A DNA stretch of 64,000 bases, taken from contig JANMDX010000256.1 of the NCBI GenBank assembly GCA_031376505.1, positions 8,682-72,681 of the forward strand, given 5' to 3'. The notes beneath the pieces are model-generated. The model had not been told where the DNA came from and searched no databases. It saw only the letters and a list, made by a program, of their open reading frames with translations. This stretch comes from Acidobacteriota bacterium (GTDB taxonomy: Bacteria > Acidobacteriota > Vicinamibacteria > Vicinamibacterales > UBA2999). Both the position numbers and the translations under genes were made by a program. How positions within the stretch are numbered: position 1 is the stretch's first letter; the number at the start of each line of letters is the position of its first letter. Shown here in pieces: positions 10,805-48,747 of the stretch.

Positions 10805-11146
10805 CCGGGGCCGGACGACGCCGAGGGCAAGACTCGCTGATTGGCGCTTCAGAAGCCAGGAAACCGCAGCAGTCAATTCCCCGTTCTAGTAGACTATTGT
10901 TGTCGTCCCTGCGCACCTTTCGGAGGCTGCGGCGGGTCGAAAATTGGCAGTTCTCGCAGGGTTGGAAGCCCCCCCCAGGCGCCTGGCCCTCAGGGAACTG
11001 CCGAAGCCGGCGGTTGAGGTGCTTACGGCCTGAGTCTTGCTTAAGGCAAGGCTGGGCCCGACATTTCACCTGCTGGCGAAGGCCAAGCAGCCCCAGAAGC
11101 TCTCTGCCATGAGCGTCTGGTCACTGGGCCGATACGAGGACGACCG

Positions 11147-12217
11147 ATGTTGGCCGCAACTGCCGAAGCACAACTGATTGGGGATAGCCCCGCCGTCGCC
11201 GATCTCCGCACGGACATCGAGCGCACGGCACGGTCCGACGCCAAGGTGCTCATCACCGGGGAGAGCGGCGTGGGCAAGGAGCTGGTCGCACGGTCCGTAC
11301 ACGCCCACAGCTCGCGGGCGTCGAAGCCGTTTGTGGCGGTCAACTGCGCGGGCCTGCCGGAGACACTGCTCGAATCGGAACTGTTCGGGCACGTCAAGGG
11401 CAGCTTCACGGGCGCCTACCGTGACAAGCAAGGCAAGCTTGAAATGGCCGACGGCGGCACGCTCTTTCTCGATGAAGTCGGCGAGATGACCCTGCGCATG
11501 CAGGGCCTGCTGCTGCGTTTCCTCGAAACCGGCGAGTTGCAGAAGGTCGGCGCCGACCGGGTGCGCGCTACCGTCAGCATCCGCGTCATCGCCGCGACCA
11601 ATCGCAACCTGCGCGAGCTCATCGCGCAGCAGGCGTTCCGCGAAGACTTGTTCTACCGGCTCAACGTGATTCACCTGCTGGTGCCGCCCCTACGCGAGCG
11701 ACGCACCGACATTCCCGACCTCGTGCAGCGCTTTCTGCTGCGCAGCAGCGCGACTGGCCACTACGCGATGCGGTCGGTATCGCCAGAGGCCATGGACGCT
11801 CTGTGCAAGTACTCCTGGCCCGGCAACGTGCGCGAACTGCAGAACCTCGTCGAGCGGCTCGTCGTGACCTGCCAGCGCGAGATCGCGCTGCCCGACGACC
11901 TCCCGCCGGAGATCCGGCTGCTGCCCTTCGGCGCTTATCGGCCGCGGCGCGAACGCCGGCGCACGGTGTCCGACGAGCTGTACCAGAAGCTCGTCGACAC
12001 CGGCGAGTCGTTCTGGACGCTCGTCTATCCGCTCTACATGCAGCGTGAGATCACCAGAGGCCATCTGCGCGACCTCGTGCGGAAGGGCCTTCAGGAGGCC
12101 CGCGGCAACTATCGGATCGTCGTGCGCATCTTCAATATGCCGACGGGCGACTACAAACGGTTCCTCAACTTCCTGCGCACTCACGAGTGCCAGGTCTCGT
12201 TCAAGGAGTTCCGATGA
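11147..12217 (+). CDS. Sigma-54-dependent transcriptional activator without receiver/sensor domain (paralog 1)
   Basis: The AAA+ domain starts about 10 residues from the N-terminus: Walker A GESGVGKE, Walker [10 protein letters not shown], sigma-54 contact loop [26 protein letters not shown]-terminal HTH-like tail [25 protein letters not shown]. Confidence 0.9.
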   Translation: MLAATAEAQLIGDSPAVADLRTDIERTARSDAKVLITGESGVGKELVARSVHAHSSRASKPFVAVNCAGLPETLLESELFGHVKGSFTGAYRDKQGKLEMADGGTLFLDEVGEMTLRMQGLLLRFLETGELQKVGADRVRATVSIRVIAATNRNLRELIAQQAFREDLFYRLNVIHLLVPPLRERRTDIPDLVQRFLLRSSATGHYAMRSVSPEAMDALCKYSWPGNVRELQNLVERLVVTCQREIALPDDLPPEIRLLPFGAYRPRRERRRTVSDELYQKLVDTGESFWTLVYPLYMQREITRGHLRDLVRKGLQEARGNYRIVVRIFNMPTGDYKRFLNFLRTHECQVSFKEFR

Positions 12218-37535: not shown

Positions 37536-39818
37536 CTACGGCAAGGCCGCCAGTTGCGCCACGGCGTCGGCCGCGCCAGGGAACTTGCGGTCGAGTGCCA
37601 ACGCCGCCTTGAGCGATGCCTTGGCGCGAGCTGGCTCGTTGTTCTTTGACAGCGCCAGCCCGAGCCGGTAGTGGTACTCGGGATTGTCTGGGGCGAACTT
37701 CACGGCGTCTTCGAAGGCAGCGACCGAGAAGCCGAAGAGGTTGCGCCGGTAGTAGATGAGCCCGAGCGTGTCGCTCACCTCTGGCGATTCCGGCGACCCC
37801 ACCTTCGCCGTCTGCGCGAGTTGCAGCGCCACGTCGAGGTTCTCGCCGTCTTCCACTTTCATCCACGCCAGGTTGTTGGCCGCGACCACGGCAGACGCAT
37901 CGACCCGGAGCACGGCTTCGTAGGCCTTCTTTGCCTCGTCGCGCCGGTTGGCCATGTGGTGCAGCACGGCCACGACGGTCTTGGGCCCGACTGCGGTCGG
38001 CTGCAGGGCGGCCAGCCGCTGGAACTCTCGCAGCGCGTCCTCGAGGCGCCGATCGGCCACGTAGAGCTGCCCGAGCATCGAGTACGCCTCGAGCAGCGCC
38101 GGGTCGGCCTCGATGGCGCGCTTCAACAATGCCTCGGCGGTCTTGAAGTCACGGGTCTCGCCGTAGGCGCGCGCGGCCAGCACGAGCGACTTCGCGTCGG
38201 TGGGCGCTTTTTCGAGTGCGGTGTTCGCCGCCGCGAGCGCGCCCGCCACATTGCCGGAGGCGAGGCGGCTCGCCACCAGACCTCCGAGGGCTTCGTAAGA
38301 CGACGGCTGGGACACGAGGGCGGCGGCAAAGCGCTGCTCCGCCGCTTTCGGGTCGCGCCGCACGAGGCGAATCTGCCCCTCGAGCAGCTGTACGCGGGGC
38401 TCGTTGGGCAACTGCGTGGCGACCGGTCGCAGTTCGTTGGCGGCGTTGTCGGCCTGACCGGCGCCCACGTACGCGCGCACGAGTGCCAGCCGCGCTTCCA
38501 GGTGATTGGGCGCGTTGCGCACAGCCTGTTGCGCAACATCGATGGCTTTTTCGTACTGGCGCTCGGCAAGGTGGATCCGCGACAACTCGACCTGCGCCGG
38601 CACGTAGTTGGGTTCGAGGCGCAACACCTCGAGCAGCGAGGCCCGCGCTTCGCCGGCGCGCCGCCGCTGCAGCAGCGCCTGCGCCAGCCAGAAGTGGCCG
38701 GCTTCGTACTTGCTGTCAACAGCGACCGATTGCTGCAGGTCGGTCAGCGCCTCGTCGATCTTGCCGGCATCGAGCCGGAAGCGGCCCCGAAGCGCGAGGG
38801 CCTTGGCCGAGCGCGGCTGGGCCTTCAACAGCTCGTCAAGGTGGGCGTGCGCGGCAGGCTGGCGGCCTGCCATGTAGTCGATGGTGGCAAGCCGCAACTT
38901 CGCGTCGGCGAACTGGCGGCGGTCGCCTGACATCTTCTGGAGCCGCTCGACAGCTTCCGTCTCGCGGTTGGTCGCGAGCAACACTTCCGTGAGCAGGAAG
39001 CCGGCAGTGGCATCGCCCAGATCGTCGGCGAGCGAACGCAGATGGGGTTCAGCCTTCGACGCCTGATTCAGATTGACGTACAGCGATGCCAGCGCCCGCA
39101 GCGCCAGCGCGTTCTTTGCGTCGAGCGCCAGCGCTGACGCAAAGGCCTTTTCCGCGCCGGCCATGTCGCCAGACTGGAGCCGGTAGCTGCCAAGCGCCAG
39201 GTGCGCCTCGGGCGAGGTCGGGTCGACGGCGATTGCCTGGGCGTAGGCGGCCTCGGCCTCGGGCAGGCGGCCGCGCACACTCTGAATCGCCGCAAGCGTA
39301 GCGTGCGTGAGCCCGCGGTTCGGATCGAACTCGATCGCCCTCTTCAGTGACTCGGCCGCCGCCTCGTAGTCCTTCATGCCGGCCAGCGCATTGCCGAGCA
39401 GCACGTGCGCGGCAGCGTTCTTGGGCTCTCGTTCGATGACCTTCCGAGCCCGGGCCCGGGCGTCTTCGTAACGGGTCGCAAGCAGAAGATACTGGCCGGC
39501 CATCAGCTGCACCTTCGGTTCGTCGGGCAGGAGGTCGGCAGCGCGCACGTACTCGGGATACGCGGCTTCAGGGTTTCTGGAGTTCGAATACGCCTCGCCA
39601 AGCTGGAAACGCGCGCGGCCAAACGCCGGATCGATCTGAATGGCGGAGCGATACTCGATGATCGCCTCGGGGTACTGGCGTTGGGCGGCATATGCGTCGC
39701 CGCGTGTGAGGTGCTGCTGCTTCTCTGTGGCCGGATCACTCGAACAGGCCGCCGAGTACGCCACGAGTGCGGCGATCGCCACGAAGCGTGGCGCGCAAGA
39801 CAGACTGCGGGAAGACAT
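37536..39818 (-). CDS. prsT: PEP-CTERM system TPR-repeat lipoprotein
   Basis: Lipoprotein signal (FVAIAALVAYSAAC). The whole protein is TPR repeats. It sits directly downstream of EpsI and the exosortase. Start at ATG 39818. Confidence 0.85.
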   Translation of the reverse strand: MSSRSLSCAPRFVAIAALVAYSAACSSDPATEKQQHLTRGDAYAAQRQYPEAIIEYRSAIQIDPAFGRARFQLGEAYSNSRNPEAAYPEYVRAADLLPDEPKVQLMAGQYLLLATRYEDARARARKVIEREPKNAAAHVLLGNALAGMKDYEAAAESLKRAIEFDPNRGLTHATLAAIQSVRGRLPEAEAAYAQAIAVDPTSPEAHLALGSYRLQSGDMAGAEKAFASALALDAKNALALRALASLYVNLNQASKAEPHLRSLADDLGDATAGFLLTEVLLATNRETEAVERLQKMSGDRRQFADAKLRLATIDYMAGRQPAAHAHLDELLKAQPRSAKALALRGRFRLDAGKIDEALTDLQQSVAVDSKYEAGHFWLAQALLQRRRAGEARASLLEVLRLEPNYVPAQVELSRIHLAERQYEKAIDVAQQAVRNAPNHLEARLALVRAYVGAGQADNAANELRPVATQLPNEPRVQLLEGQIRLVRRDPKAAEQRFAAALVSQPSSYEALGGLVASRLASGNVAGALAAANTALEKAPTDAKSLVLAARAYGETRDFKTAEALLKRAIEADPALLEAYSMLGQLYVADRRLEDALREFQRLAALQPTAVGPKTVVAVLHHMANRRDEAKKAYEAVLRVDASAVVAANNLAWMKVEDGENLDVALQLAQTAKVGSPESPEVSDTLGLIYYRRNLFGFSVAAFEDAVKFAPDNPEYHYRLGLALSKNNEPARAKASLKAALALDRKFPGAADAVAQLAALP

Positions 39819-39831
39819 GGCGGGTGGACTC

Positions 39832-40473
39832 CTATTCGGGAACGAACCGCGACAGCAACGGAAAGATATCGGCGGCAAGAGCTTCGGCACGGCGGCTCGC
39901 CGCGCTGGCGTCTTCGCCTCGGGCCACAGGGCTCAGCACGCGCACAAGCGCGCCGTCGGTGCGGTTGCGCTGGGCGGCATCCCACACGAGGTAGGCCTTG
40001 CTCCAGTACTCGCTCGCGACGGTGCGGCCGCGCCCTTGGTACCAATACAGCGCCACTTGCCGGTCTTCGCCCTTCTGGATCACATAACGATTCACCTCGA
40101 CCGCACCCGAAGAGCCGGCGGCAATCGTGGTGCGGCCCGCTTGCACCGGCACCCAGCCCGCGCCCGGCAGACAGTTCATCGGAGAGTGGATGGTGTCGCC
40201 CTGCCGCTGGCTGCGGTAGTACCCGACAAACAGGCCGACCTGCGCCCCGGGAGACGCGTACGCACGCAACAGATAGTCATCCACGCCGAGCACGCGCATC
40301 GTGTCGAAGTCGAGAGGAGCGGCGTCGGTGCCCGTCCAGCGGCCGATCGCCATTGGAAAATCCGCCAACGCGTCGCGAGGCGCGGTGGCATCGGCCCGTT
40401 CTGATGCAGCAAGCGCGGCCGCGGCCGCACTGAGCGTCAGGAAGACCACGAAGAGTCGGGTGGTTAACGTCAT
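39832..40473 (-). CDS. epsI: Exosortase-associated EpsI family protein
   Basis: Signal/anchor, then DFPMAIGRWTG...DDYLLRAY....VGLFVGYYRSQRQGDTIHSPMNCLPGAGW, the hallmark EpsI core. Confidence 0.85.
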   Translation of the reverse strand: MTLTTRLFVVFLTLSAAAAALAASERADATAPRDALADFPMAIGRWTGTDAAPLDFDTMRVLGVDDYLLRAYASPGAQVGLFVGYYRSQRQGDTIHSPMNCLPGAGWVPVQAGRTTIAAGSSGAVEVNRYVIQKGEDRQVALYWYQGRGRTVASEYWSKAYLVWDAAQRNRTDGALVRVLSPVARGEDASAASRRAEALAADIFPLLSRFVPE

Positions 40474-40477
40474 GCGG

Positions 40478-41371
40478 TCACACCGACGCGCTACTGGCGG
40501 GTACGCCGGAAGGCAGCACGGGGTCTGGCGTGATGCGATTCACAAGTTCGCGCAGCGCGAAGAGCAGGGCAAGGGCCGCTACGAACACGAGCCAGCCCGA
40601 GACCCCATGAAGAAATCCTTCAGCCACGTCGGCGCCGTAGCGATGGGCCGCGATCCCTGTGCCCGCGACGCGCAGGCCGTTGGTCAGCACGGCAATCGGC
40701 ACGGTCGAGACCGCGAGCAGGCAGCGCACCCAAAGCCGCGAGTCCATGAAGTAGGCATACACGACACTCAGCGTGAGCAGCGACACGAGCGAGCGGATGC
40801 CGCTGCACGCCTCGGCCACTTCGAGAGTGGTGTTGGCCAGGATCATCACGTTGCCTTCTCGTAGCACCGGCACGCCGAACGCCTCGAGGCCGGCCTGACC
40901 GACCTGTGAGGCCAGCAGCTGCAGCGGCAGCGCGACCTGGTTGAAGAGCAATGCCGGCAAGGGAATCATCAGCAGGAGGAAGGCCAGCGGAAACGCGAGC
41001 AGGCGCAGATGCGCCCATCCAAAAGCGAACAGCACCACACCCACAAGCACGCCCACCATCGCTACGCGCGTGAGGAACAGCTCGGCGCCAAGCGTGCCCG
41101 CCCCAAGCAGCAGCAGGCTGCCGACGACCACGGCGAAGCCAAGCGCACTGGGTCTCAACGCCGCCGCGGTAAGCGCCGCGCGGCGCTCCCATGCCAGGAA
41201 CAGCGCGACCGGCACGACCAGAAAGCCGTGGGAGTAGTTGTAGTCGGTGGACCAGTCGGCAACCAGATTGCGCGCGACGTCGAAGAACACGGCCGCAAAG
41301 GCAACGCCCGCCAGCACCGCCATGACGGCTGCGCGAGAGGGCGGCCCGGTGCGCAATGGGAGAATCGTCAC
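40478..41371 (-). CDS. Exosortase (EpsH/XrtA-like)
   Basis: DWSTDYNYSHGFLVVPVALFLAW, catalytic-Cys motif EACSGIRSL, NGLRV and HGVSGW motifs, 8 TM helices. The start is uncertain: GTG 41371 is chosen, with alternatives ATG 41323 and TTG 41449 (the latter would overlap the upstream hairpin tail). Confidence 0.9.
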   Translation of the reverse strand: MTILPLRTGPPSRAAVMAVLAGVAFAAVFFDVARNLVADWSTDYNYSHGFLVVPVALFLAWERRAALTAAALRPSALGFAVVVGSLLLLGAGTLGAELFLTRVAMVGVLVGVVLFAFGWAHLRLLAFPLAFLLLMIPLPALLFNQVALPLQLLASQVGQAGLEAFGVPVLREGNVMILANTTLEVAEACSGIRSLVSLLTLSVVYAYFMDSRLWVRCLLAVSTVPIAVLTNGLRVAGTGIAAHRYGADVAEGFLHGVSGWLVFVAALALLFALRELVNRITPDPVLPSGVPASSASV

Positions 41372-41440
41372 TCTCGAGGAAGTATCGGTCGGAACGAGGC
41401 GATTTCGTAGCGATGAATGGCGGCTCGCGGACGGCCGCGG

Positions 41441-41474
41441 AAATGACAACGGCGAGGCGCTGACGCGCCCCGCC
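41441..41474 (-). terminator. Stem-loop (possible attenuator/terminator) between the PEP-CTERM gene and the exosortase
   Basis: The minus-strand RNA forms GGCGGGGCGC-GUCA-GCGCCUCGCC, a 10-bp stem with one G-U pair, followed by GUUGUCAUUU. Confidence 0.4.
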
Positions 41475-41508
41475 GTGCGGAATCAACTGAAGTGGGAGCC
41501 GCCTGCAG

Positions 41509-42219
41509 CTAGGCGGTCTGAGCCGCGGCCCGACGGCGACGGCGACGAGCCGCCGCGGCGCCGGCCAGGCCAGTCGCGAGCAACACCATGCTGGCTGGTT
41601 CCGGCACGACGGTGGGCGCCGTGTTCACGAACGACTCGCTATTGCCTTCGCCGCCAATCGACTGCACGTGTGTGCCGATGCGCAGGTCGCCGGTCGACAG
41701 GCTGGTCAGCAGGCTGGCGAACGTGGAGCCCTGGTTGAGCGTGAAGATCAGCCTCAGCCACTCACCCGGGTTGACGCCGTTTGGCGATACCGGTGGCCGG
41801 GCGCCGACGCCGTCGGTGGCCCGGAACTGGATGCCGTTTCCGCCCGGCAGGTTCCGGTTACCGGCGAGCTCTCTGAAGCTCACGCCGCTTGACCCGTTCA
41901 TGCTGCTCAGCGCGATCAGCGTCGGATTGGGTTGGTCGAAATATATCTGGGTAATCGAGGACGCGCCCGGGCCCGTGTTGCTGAACAGGAACTCCACCGA
42001 GCCATTTCCCAGGTCGGTCAGTGCGGCACTGAGCTGCGACTGCCCGATGGCGCAGCTGGACGCGGCGTTGTTGGTCACGCACGAGAATCCGAGCGTGGCA
42101 GCCTCGGTCCGGGCCGTTCCGAGCGCAAACACCGTGGCAACCGCGGCGGCCGACAACGCAATCCGGGAAACTGACATTCGCATCACCAAGGCGCTCATCC
42201 TTTTCTCTACGGTAGCCAC
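41509..42219 (-). CDS. PEP-CTERM sorting-domain protein (putative exosortase substrate)
   Basis: C-terminus VVPEPASMVLLATGLAGAAAARRRRRRAAAQTA = PEP motif + TM helix + Arg cluster. N-terminal signal (…RIALSAAAVATVFALGTARTEA). The start is ambiguous: GTG 42219, or ATG 42198/42183/42177. Confidence 0.9.
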   Translation of the reverse strand: MATVEKRMSALVMRMSVSRIALSAAAVATVFALGTARTEAATLGFSCVTNNAASSCAIGQSQLSAALTDLGNGSVEFLFSNTGPGASSITQIYFDQPNPTLIALSSMNGSSGVSFRELAGNRNLPGGNGIQFRATDGVGARPPVSPNGVNPGEWLRLIFTLNQGSTFASLLTSLSTGDLRIGTHVQSIGGEGNSESFVNTAPTVVPEPASMVLLATGLAGAAAARRRRRRAAAQTA

Positions 42220-42274
42220 ACTTCACAGAGGAAGATCCGCCTGCGGTGCGGTGTCCGTTGACGCATATTGAACA

Positions 42275-42289
42275 GCAATAACGCTGCCA
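42275..42289 (-). promoter_or_regulatory. Candidate sigma-54 (-24/-12) promoter for the PEP-CTERM gene/exosortase operon
   Basis: The minus strand reads TGGCAGCGTTATTGC (TGGCA-N6-TTGC, canonical spacing). It lies 56 nt upstream of the first possible start codon. Confidence 0.65.
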
Positions 42290-42469
42290 ACTGTCCACGA
42301 CCGTGTACCTACGCGCCGTATTGAGGGTTTCCAGGCGATGGGTTCAAGGGGAGGGCCAGATGCAAGTCATGGTCGCGCATTTTGGGAAAAATAATCGTGC
42401 CCTGCGCAGACTAGTAAGGCTCGGCTGCCGCGGTTGGGCGCTCGGGCGCTTGACACCTCATGCCAGGTG

Positions 42470-42483
42470 CACGCAGCTGCGTG
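42470..42483. promoter_or_regulatory. 14-bp perfect palindrome CACGCAGCTGCGTG in the divergent control region
   Basis: Perfect dyad, about 180 bp upstream of the sigma-54 motif at 42275-42289 and about 130 bp upstream of the activator start at 42615. Confidence 0.3.
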
Positions 42484-42614
42484 GTTCAGGTCTTCCGTCC
42501 AGACTTTGTTCTGCTCTTTCCTGACAGATAGTCGCTCGATTCTTGTTCTTGTCCGCAAACTGCTGATATTCTGACGTGGTAGTGGTCCGTTCAGACTACG
42601 GGTCGACCAAATCA

Positions 42615-43775
42615 ATGCAGCCAGTCGACGCTCCCCGAGACATACCGGCGCCCCAGCCTCGCCAGCAGGTCCTGATTGGACGGAGCCAGGCTCTGAAGGT
42701 CGTACATCAGGAGATCGAGTACGCCGCGCGGTCCGACGCGAAGGTGCTTGTCACGGGGGCCAGTGGCGTGGGCAAGGAAGTGGTCGCGCACCTCATCCAC
42801 ACCCGCAGCCGGCGGCGCCACGCGCCGATGCTTACGATCAACTGTGCGGCCATGCCTGACTCGCTGCTCGAGTCCGAGCTCTTCGGACACGCCCGGGGTA
42901 GCTTCACCGACGCGTATCGCGACAAGCGCGGGCTCTTTGAAGCCGCCAATGGCGGCACGGTGTTCCTCGACGAAGTCGGCGAGATGTCACTCCGCATGCA
43001 GGCGTTGCTGCTCAGATTTCTCGAAACCGGGGAGATTCAGCGGGTGGGCGACGAGCGCAATCGCGCCAACGTCAACGTCCGCGTCGTGGCCGCGACGAAT
43101 CGGCGTCTGCCCGAACGCATCCAGAGCGGCGACTTCCGCGAAGACCTCTACTATCGGCTCAATGTGATTCACATCACGATTCCGCCGCTGCGCGAACGTC
43201 GCGACGACGTGGCGCCGCTGCTCGAGCACTTCCTGCGGCAATTCGCGGTCGAACACGGCGTGCCTCTGCCGGCAACCGCCGACGACGCGGTGACCGCGCT
43301 CGAAGCGTACGACTGGCCCGGCAACGTTCGAGAGCTCCGCAACATCGCCGAGCGTCTGACCTGCCGCTGCCCCGGCGGCGTGATTCGCATCGAAGATCTG
43401 CCGGCGGAAGTACGGGCTGTGGCTGTGCCTCCCGACGCGCCGGGGACGAAGCCAGGCGCGACCGCTCCGGCGCAAGCCTTGCTCGATCGGATCCTGCTCA
43501 GGGGTGAATCGTTCTGGGATGTGGCGTACGAACCGTTCATGGCCCGCGACTTGACGCGTGAGGACGTGCGGCACCTGGTGCGCGTGGGGCTCGAACAAAC
43601 CCGCGGGAACTACAAGGCGCTGGTGCAGCTGTTCAACATGGAACCGCAGGACTACAAGCGGTTCCTGAATTTCCTGCGCAAATACGGCTGCCACATGCCG
43701 TTCCAGCGATTCCGGATGGCGCCGGGTCGCGGCGACAGCGGCGCAGCCGGTTCGAGCGGTAAAGAGCCCGTCTGA
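42615..43775 (+). CDS. Sigma-54-dependent transcriptional activator without receiver/sensor domain (paralog 2)
   Basis: About 25 residues precede the AAA+ core: Walker A GASGVGKE, Walker [10 protein letters not shown], contact loop [26 protein letters not shown]-terminal tail [25 protein letters not shown] matches paralog 1. ATG 42615 is preferred over GTG 42576. Confidence 0.9.
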
Positions 43776-44471: not shown

Positions 44472-44486
44472 GCAAACCATCGGCCA
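44472..44486 (-). promoter_or_regulatory. Candidate sigma-54 (-24/-12) promoter for REC-PilZ copy 1
   Basis: The minus strand reads TGGCCGATGGTTTGC (then AA) with canonical GG/GC spacing, 27 nt upstream of ATG 44445. The 7-bp inverted repeat GGTTTGC/GCAAACC (44452-44458 / 44472-44478) overlaps the -12 element. Confidence 0.5.
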
Positions 44487-48732: not shown

Positions 48733-48747
48733 TGGCAGCGGCTTTGC
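48733..48747 (+). promoter_or_regulatory. Candidate sigma-54 (-24/-12) promoter immediately upstream of the S8 protease gene
   Basis: TGGCAGCGGCTTTGC (TGGCA-N6-TTGC). Only 13 nt separate the -12 GC from ATG 48761, implying a leaderless or near-leaderless mRNA if the motif is functional. Confidence 0.45.

Follow-up and report, generated by a model that had tools for sequence, protein, structure and literature searches.

What drives a gene for a PEP-CTERM surface protein in a bacterium outside the Proteobacteria? In the 64,000-nt stretch of an uncultured Acidobacteriota MAG (order Vicinamibacterales) analysed here, referred to as the window, a PEP-CTERM protein gene and a gene for a sigma-54 activator diverge from a 395-bp intergenic region (42220-42614). 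An earlier note on this DNA, made from its letters, had proposed that the region contains a near-consensus sigma-54 promoter driving an operon of the PEP-CTERM substrate and its exosortase. Three questions follow: whether the motif is a working promoter, which activator would fire it, and how far its transcript would extend. The evidence assembled below, which is comparative throughout, argues that positions 42274-42289 of the minus strand form a functional sigma-54 (-24/-12) promoter of the PEP-CTERM gene, operating by the mechanism proposed further on, with a probability of about 0.82.

The -24/-12 element

The features that define the promoter and the gene behind it are the following.

42274-42289, minus strand: sigma-54 promoter, with -24 box TGGCA (GG at 42287-42288) and -12 box TTGCT (GC at 42275-42276); from the exact match and ortholog invariance
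42261-42265, minus strand: predicted transcription start, at about 42263; from the usual 12 nt between the -12 C and +1
42190-42263, minus strand: predicted 5' untranslated region with Shine-Dalgarno AAGGA (42198-42202); AAGGATG is invariant in 10/10 orthologs
41509-42189, minus strand: PEP-CTERM protein gene; PF07589 and TIGR02595 both above cut-offs, residues 205-229

The sequence TGGCAGCGTTATTGC occupies positions 42275-42289 of the minus strand, within the GC-poor divergent intergenic region. It reads as the earlier note had described it, an exact TGGCA-N6-TTGC with the GG and GC dinucleotides at the correct spacing. Compared with TGGCAC-N5-TTGCW, TGGCAGCGTTATTGCT matches at nine of the nine searched positions, carries in addition a T at -11 and keeps the GG-N10-GC spacing. 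The other descriptive points of that note hold as well: the -12 C (42275) lies 56 nt from the first possible start codon, GTG 42219; the motif diverges from the activator gene, which begins with ATG 42615 on the plus strand; and the region is less GC-rich than its surroundings, with 54-60% GC over 42200-42700 against 65-70% in the flanks.

Exact TGGCA-N6-TTGC occurs twice in the window, at 42275-42289 (minus) and 48733-48747 (plus), for a computed expectation of 0.57, in line with the earlier estimate of less than one chance copy. Two or more copies were obtained in 11 of 100 shuffles, and the whole 6.48-Mb genome contains 48 exact copies against the ~39 expected from base frequencies, so that motif counts alone prove no function. 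The position of the sites relative to genes was assessed with genes called crudely from GC3 (5207 genes, 86% coding). Seventeen of the exact genomic sites are intergenic and 12 of these lie at most 300 nt upstream of a co-directional gene, against 2-3 such upstream sites for each of the spacer controls, in which the same two words were separated by N4, N5, N7 or N8. This difference indicates that the organism uses the TGGCA-N6-TTGC consensus. The genome encodes one copy of rpoN (TIGR02395, 459.7 bits for a cut-off of 277) and ~25 sigma-54 activators, one of them divergently adjacent to the motif and one 30 kb away.

Conservation of the promoter and of the leader

Orthologs of the PEP-CTERM protein, with 68-86% identity, were found in nine other genomes of the genus (Acidobacteriota, Vicinamibacterales). 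TGGCA-N6-TTGCT is present in 10/10 orthologous loci, 70-91 nt ahead of the matched coding start. In the oriented alignment of the 10 loci, the 16-nt promoter has 10 invariant positions, exactly TGGCA and TTGCT, the 6-nt spacer and the flanks being variable. Directly upstream of the promoter the invariant positions amount to 2 of 88, and in the leader downstream to 1 of 70. This invariance of the motif in all orthologous loci supports the assignment, made in the earlier note, of a sigma-54 promoter to the PEP-CTERM gene.

As this genome holds two PEP-CTERM genes only, the second of which (C55) is without the motif, enrichment was examined instead on related genomes, by scanning 350 nt upstream of each of 20 unrelated PEP-CTERM genes from other Vicinamibacterales families. 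Seven of the 20 genes are preceded by a motif on the sense strand with no more than one mismatch, three of these motifs being exact; controls on the same genes, with other spacers or on the antisense strand, returned 0-2 motifs. No activator gene was found within 1.5 kb of these other PEP-CTERM genes.

The only other invariant block near the promoter is AAGGATG, followed 8 nt further on by TTG (GTG in two genomes), an arrangement that makes TTG 42189 the likely start codon. GTG 42219 is unconserved among the orthologs. Judged from this alignment, translation would probably start at TTG 42189, with ATG 42198 as an alternative, and not at GTG 42219. Either of the two preferred codons would give a 5' untranslated region of ~65-74 nt. 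The fold of the leader is not unusual (z = -0.7) and no Rfam family matches it.

Two modules in the divergent region

Two further conserved features lie between the promoter and the activator gene.

42380-42412, minus strand: conserved upstream element, candidate enhancer (UAS), at ~-117 to -150; its start lies 121-123 nt upstream of TGGCA in 9/9 genomes
42499-42572, plus strand: putative promoter module of the activator gene itself (module B), composed of CCAGACTTTGTTCT, GATAGTCGC, CTTGTCC and CTGCTGATATTCT; from conservation

The sigma-54 promoter and the conserved upstream element together constitute module A. The element reads AGTCTGCGCAGGGCACGATTATTTTTCCC here and AGTCTGG-N9-AGAACATCATCCC in the orthologs. 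Its first base is fixed 121-123 nt upstream of TGGCA in all nine genomes although the intervening DNA is unconserved (the 2 invariant positions of 88 mentioned above), and this fixed spacing, together with a position of ~-117 to -150, is as expected for an enhancer. The stretch 42380-42412 is thus a likely enhancer, to which the activator would bind. Its dyad symmetry is weak and half-sites are not definable. A position weight matrix of the element detected no second copy in the genome, and none beside a sigma-54 motif; inspection by eye of the other Vicinamibacterales PEP-CTERM promoters revealed no shared upstream element.

The earlier note had also pointed to an A/T tract upstream of the promoter and likened its position to that of bending or IHF sites. 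The tract, CATTTTGGGAAAAATAAT, does exist, at 42378-42395, one base away from where it had been placed, and it forms the right half of the upstream element, a half that is degenerate in this genome. Its proposed role does not hold: the tract sits inside the conserved element, its A/T richness is not conserved among the orthologs, and the IHF consensus WATCAANNNNTTR has no match in 42290-42420, even with one mismatch allowed. The only regional match to that consensus, 42556-42568, falls inside module B. An IHF-assisted sigma-54 promoter was considered and rejected, as no IHF site was found between enhancer and promoter.

Module B has a fixed internal spacing of 64-66 nt in the nine island-bearing genomes and ends 43 nt before the activator ATG; the distance between modules A and B varies by ~40 nt among genomes. 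Its last block, CTGCTGATATTCT, reads like an extended -10 (TGnTATTCT). The module is also kept in eight genomes that lack the PEP-CTERM locus, which marks it as the probable promoter region of the activator gene, unconnected with the PEP-CTERM gene, and leaves module A as a part of the island described below. Since a scan of the region with the sigma-70 consensus gave no hits, the activator's own promoter is inferred from the conserved TGnTATTCT. The 395-bp region, presented in the earlier note as one control region, therefore has to be split into two modules, the activator-proximal half persisting in genomes without the PEP-CTERM locus.

Two observations concern the edges of these modules. 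The leader of the activator gene contains a small palindrome, CCGTTCAGACTACGG (42586-42600, plus strand), whose sequence changes between orthologs while the symmetry persists, as in CCGTGAATTCACGG and CTCTGAGAAAAACAGAG; a hairpin and an operator are both conceivable. In the closest relative carrying the PEP-CTERM gene (locus L008, G004:C64, 1-1430), the homology to the window ends 11 nt upstream of TGGCA (window ~42300), and the G004 DNA beyond the break matches another contig of this genome (C171). The break reflects either a rearrangement that separated promoter from enhancer or a chimeric 5-kb MAG contig.

The island and its flanking activators

The candidate activators are encoded at the two ends of the island to which the PEP-CTERM gene belongs.

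42615-43775, plus strand: bEBP-2, sensor-less sigma-54 activator with an AAA+ domain, a lid and an HTH-like C-terminus; PF00158, 9e-67
11147-12217, plus strand: bEBP-1, paralogous sensor-less activator, 52% identical; the first EPS gene begins 8 nt past the stop codon

The island is 30.3 kb long (12218-42498). Its first ATG, 12226, lies 8 nt past the bEBP-1 stop codon TGA (12215-12217), and its other end is found just left of module B. Positions 12226-42219 encode a complete XrtA/PEP-CTERM exopolysaccharide system. Among the products are an export protein, a chain-length determinant, an ATPase, a tyrosine kinase and an EpsB_2 priming transferase; further genes encode a deacetylase, a FemAB-like protein, an amidotransferase, a glycosyltransferase and an O-ligase; the last ones encode a PrsT-like TPR protein (37536-39890, 288.8 for a TIGR02917 cut-off of 312.2), EpsI, the exosortase and the PEP-CTERM protein. 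Wherever the island is present in the genus, it is flanked by both sensor-less paralogs. It is absent from 8 of 19 genomes, and there bEBP-2 stands directly behind the bEBP-1 ortholog, with only module B between them and a gap of 2 to ~180 nt. The distribution of the island is patchy relative to activator similarity, which suggests that it was repeatedly gained or lost.

The island contains no activator gene of its own; its sigma-54 promoter must consequently use a resident activator, and the two flanking ones are the obvious candidates. Neither PrsR (TIGR02915) nor PrsK (TIGR02916) scores above cut-off in the genome, the best values being 433 for 502.6 and 89.5 for 300, respectively. Given an island without activator and a genome without PrsK/PrsR, the most likely activators are the flanking sensor-less proteins, bEBP-1 and/or bEBP-2.

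The divergent protein, bEBP-2, has no N-terminal domain: the AAA+ domain begins at residue 20 and is preceded by 19 variable residues. Its closest solved relatives are the AAA+ domains of NtrC, FleQ, ZraR, NtrC1 and PspF. The sigma-54 contact loop reads GSFTDA, not GAFTGA, and is invariant across the genus. The C-terminus can be aligned with the final part of the family models for PspF, NtrC and RtcR and gives a weak HTH match; no Pfam HTH family matches this domain and its sole PDB match has an E-value of 1.9. Orthologs with 82-95% identity occur in 18 of the 19 genomes of the genus and are under purifying selection. The search for more distant relatives was dominated by paralogs, and the two best distant matches (L033 and L034) are not syntenic. 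Eight genomes of the genus possess bEBP-2 and no PEP-CTERM gene; the protein is hence not dedicated to this sigma-54 promoter, and adjacency becomes weaker evidence for their partnership.

Two known arrangements are instructive. In Escherichia coli, the gene for PspF, a sensor-less activator made of AAA+ and HTH domains only, diverges from pspA, the sigma-54 target, with the enhancer in the shared intergenic region and an IHF site between enhancer and promoter. The present locus resembles it by a sensor-less activator divergent from a sigma-54 promoter, and departs from it in that no IHF site was found and that a PspA-like partner is missing, the neighbours being REC-PilZ-like. HrpR and HrpS of Pseudomonas syringae are two paralogous sensor-less activators, encoded in tandem, that form a hetero-oligomer. 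Paralogous sensor-less activators also stand in tandem in eight genomes of the genus; unlike in P. syringae, the pair is split by the 30-kb island in this genome, and a hetero-oligomer is hypothetical here.

The HrpRS comparison leads to an alternative that accepts the promoter and holds that bEBP-2 alone is not its activator. The role would fall instead to a bEBP-1/bEBP-2 hetero-oligomer, to bEBP-1 alone, or to one of the other ~23 activators of the genome. The directly tandem paralogs of the eight genomes reproduce the hrpRS layout, both paralogs always flank the island, bEBP-2 exists without a PEP-CTERM gene, and the matrix of the upstream element gives no second genomic site that would link it to other likely targets of bEBP-2. 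Against these points, the hetero-oligomer is a hypothesis only, neither paralog displays a degenerate ATPase motif in the alignments examined, and an activator gene divergent from its target promoter, as with pspF/pspA, is the layout met most often. On balance this alternative is the less probable choice.

The probable end of the transcript

One feature separates the PEP-CTERM gene from the exosortase gene.

41439-41476, minus strand: terminator-like hairpin (hairpin proper 41449-41476) of 12 bp with 10 G-C pairs, then tail UUGUCAUUUCC; from fold and conservation

The earlier note had assigned the promoter to a substrate/exosortase operon. The first part of this claim, a promoter of the PEP-CTERM gene, stands; the second, an operon with the exosortase, is made less likely by what lies between the two genes. 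The hairpin is located directly 3' of the PEP-CTERM stop codon, ahead of xrtA, with a folding energy of -38.6 kcal/mol (z = -3.5), and is nearly unchanged in seven genomes, with one compensatory pair. At ~115 nt past the stop codon, a conserved CCGATACT (41379-41389) precedes the in-frame exosortase starts GTG 41371, TTG 41356 and ATG 41323, and the conserved element and later starts suggest a shorter exosortase gene with a promoter of its own. Hairpin and CCGATACT element together indicate that the sigma-54 promoter probably serves mainly the PEP-CTERM gene. The sigma-54 unit would probably be mainly monocistronic, with possible read-through into xrtA-epsI-prsT, the degree of termination being inferred. 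This agrees with the single-gene operons of Haft et al. and with the rpoN1-independent prsT of Aquincola.

A single sigma-54 transcript spanning the PEP-CTERM gene, xrtA, epsI and prsT appears doubtful. The four genes do share one orientation and are separated by short gaps, and the T-tract of the hairpin is interrupted (UUGUCAUUUCC), so that termination could be partial. The hairpin is nonetheless strong and conserved, CCGATACT resembles a separate -10 box for xrtA, PEP-CTERM genes are mostly single-gene units (PMC1569441), and the downstream prsT of Aquincola is independent of rpoN1 (PMC9850573).

Concerning the exosortase itself, the start of its long ORF (TTG 41449) overlaps the terminator-like hairpin. 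The exosortase and EpsI (39832-41449, minus strand) are separate genes 4 nt apart, both of which match best the fused XrtD model TIGR04152; with the XrtA model the exosortase scores 212.5, narrowly above the cut-off of 208.

Other sigma-54 motifs in the neighbourhood

48733-48747, plus strand: second exact sigma-54 promoter, TGGCAGCGGCTTTGC, 13 nt before ATG 48761 of an S8 protease gene; kept in 14/14 loci

The second exact copy in the window, which the earlier note had also placed just upstream of a gene, likewise proves to be conserved as a promoter: TGGCAGC..C.TTGCGA is kept in 14/14 orthologous S8 protease loci, some of them in genomes without the island. In all 14 loci the start codon, ATG or in one case GTG, follows TTGC by 12-13 nt, which would leave the protease mRNA a leader of at most 0-3 nt. 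Further exact motifs 13-16 nt before a start codon occur elsewhere in the genome (G000 C399:11460, C318:29116, C17:42514 and C138:44844), prepilin-like and lipoprotein genes being included. On the basis of these distances, mRNAs from such start-abutting motifs would be leaderless or nearly so.

Two more candidates flank the island. The motif TGGCCGATGGTTTGC (44472-44486, minus strand), with one mismatch, lies 26 nt before ATG 44445 of the first REC-PilZ-like gene, the product of which gives weak REC and PilZ matches; it is kept as TGGCCGTTCGTTTGC in genome G018. A weaker motif, CGGCCTGAGTCTTGCT (11026-11041, plus strand), is found 107 nt upstream of bEBP-1, and its GG and TTGCT are kept in 16/16 genomes. 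It is followed by a conserved leader, GGCCCGACAAT..CCTGCTGG.GCAGG, and looks like a sigma-54 promoter for bEBP-1 and, where the island is present, for the EPS operon fused to bEBP-1. With motifs at the S8 protease, REC-PilZ-like and bEBP-1 genes, the neighbourhood looks like a small sigma-54 regulon.

Comparison with proteobacterial PEP-CTERM promoters

In Proteobacteria, a sigma-54 motif was described upstream of 99 of 167 PEP-CTERM genes, at a mean distance of 71 nt (71 +/- 38) before the start codon; it was found only in this phylum, and the genes are mostly single-gene units (PMC1569441, Haft et al. 2006). The same study defined a motif 1 of 17 nt, with TTTACA at its end, located 32-92 nt ahead of the sigma-54 motif (motif 2), in a system that includes PrsK, PrsR and PrsT. 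The region analysed here shares with this description a -24/-12 motif that precedes a PEP-CTERM gene within a long intergenic stretch (56-86 nt from the start, compared with 71 +/- 38), a conserved element further upstream, a gene that is probably a single-gene unit, and a linked XrtA/EPS locus with a PrsT-like TPR protein. It differs by the phylum, Acidobacteriota, by a genome without PrsR or PrsK above cut-off, and by candidate activators devoid of a receiver domain. The upstream element also differs, as its end is ~90 nt away from the promoter, the upper end of the 32-92 nt range, and no motif 1 ending in TTTACA was seen by eye in the 340 nt upstream.

The closest experimental parallel is pepA of Aquincola tertiaricarbonis RN12, which is RpoN1-dependent, with a mapped start and a TGGCAC/-12 promoter, prsT being unaffected (PMC9850573). 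Both loci associate a PEP-CTERM gene with a sigma-54 promoter, and the neighbouring prsT is separately transcribed in Aquincola. The evidence there is experimental and set in a PrsK-PrsR context, whereas here it is comparative alone.

Proposed mechanism

In the mechanism proposed for this promoter, sigma-54 RNA polymerase would bind TGGCA-N6-TTGCT as a closed complex, which would fire only after remodelling by an AAA+ enhancer-binding protein, proposed to be bound at 42380-42412. This protein would be one or both of the flanking sensor-less activators, bEBP-2 (42615, divergent) and bEBP-1 (11147). Transcription would proceed from ~42263 through a 65-74-nt leader carrying the conserved AAGGA ribosome-binding site. 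The transcript would encode the PEP-CTERM protein (TTG 42189) and mostly end at the hairpin 41449-41476, with some possible read-through into xrtA-epsI-prsT. Several observations weigh against this picture: the contact loop of bEBP-2 departs from GAFTGA, Pfam does not recognise its DNA-binding domain, the protein also occurs where the PEP-CTERM gene is missing, the upstream element has weak symmetry and a degenerate right half here, homology with G004 breaks off close to TGGCA, and motif counts are at chance level.

One could also take the match as accidental, or as an RNA element or binding site that has nothing to do with sigma-54, given that the number of exact genomic matches is close to the base-composition expectation and that 11% of window shuffles yield two. 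This reading is highly improbable: in 10 genomes the two half-sites stay invariant while the 6-nt spacer between them varies freely, the orientation is correct and the distance to the gene typical, unrelated PEP-CTERM genes are preceded by the same pattern, the fold is not unusual and no Rfam family matches.

Beyond the sigma-54 promoter of the PEP-CTERM gene, a broader and speculative picture can be drawn, in which the XrtA/PEP-CTERM island would be a regulator-less cassette that borrows the two tandem sensor-less activators as an HrpRS-like hetero-oligomer, possibly gated by the REC-PilZ proteins. These would run a local sigma-54 regulon comprising the bEBP-1/EPS operon, the PEP-CTERM gene, the REC-PilZ gene and the S8 protease gene, partly through leaderless mRNA from -24/-12 promoters. 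As a whole, this scenario is unlikely to hold in all its parts.

Significance

The kind of element described here is already known and the mechanism is not new. The annotation of the locus gains from the analysis, since the start codon and the operon boundary are corrected and the candidate enhancer is told apart from the activator's own promoter. The Vicinamibacterales are an abundant and barely cultured soil group, for which, to our knowledge, no promoters have been mapped; the present locus provides one well-supported sigma-54 promoter, with four candidates in one neighbourhood. The link between sigma-54 and PEP-CTERM genes, known in Proteobacteria since 2006, would thereby be carried into another phylum, where the regulators differ: PEP-CTERM surface proteins would be under sigma-54 control outside the Proteobacteria too, and this control could run without PrsK/PrsR.
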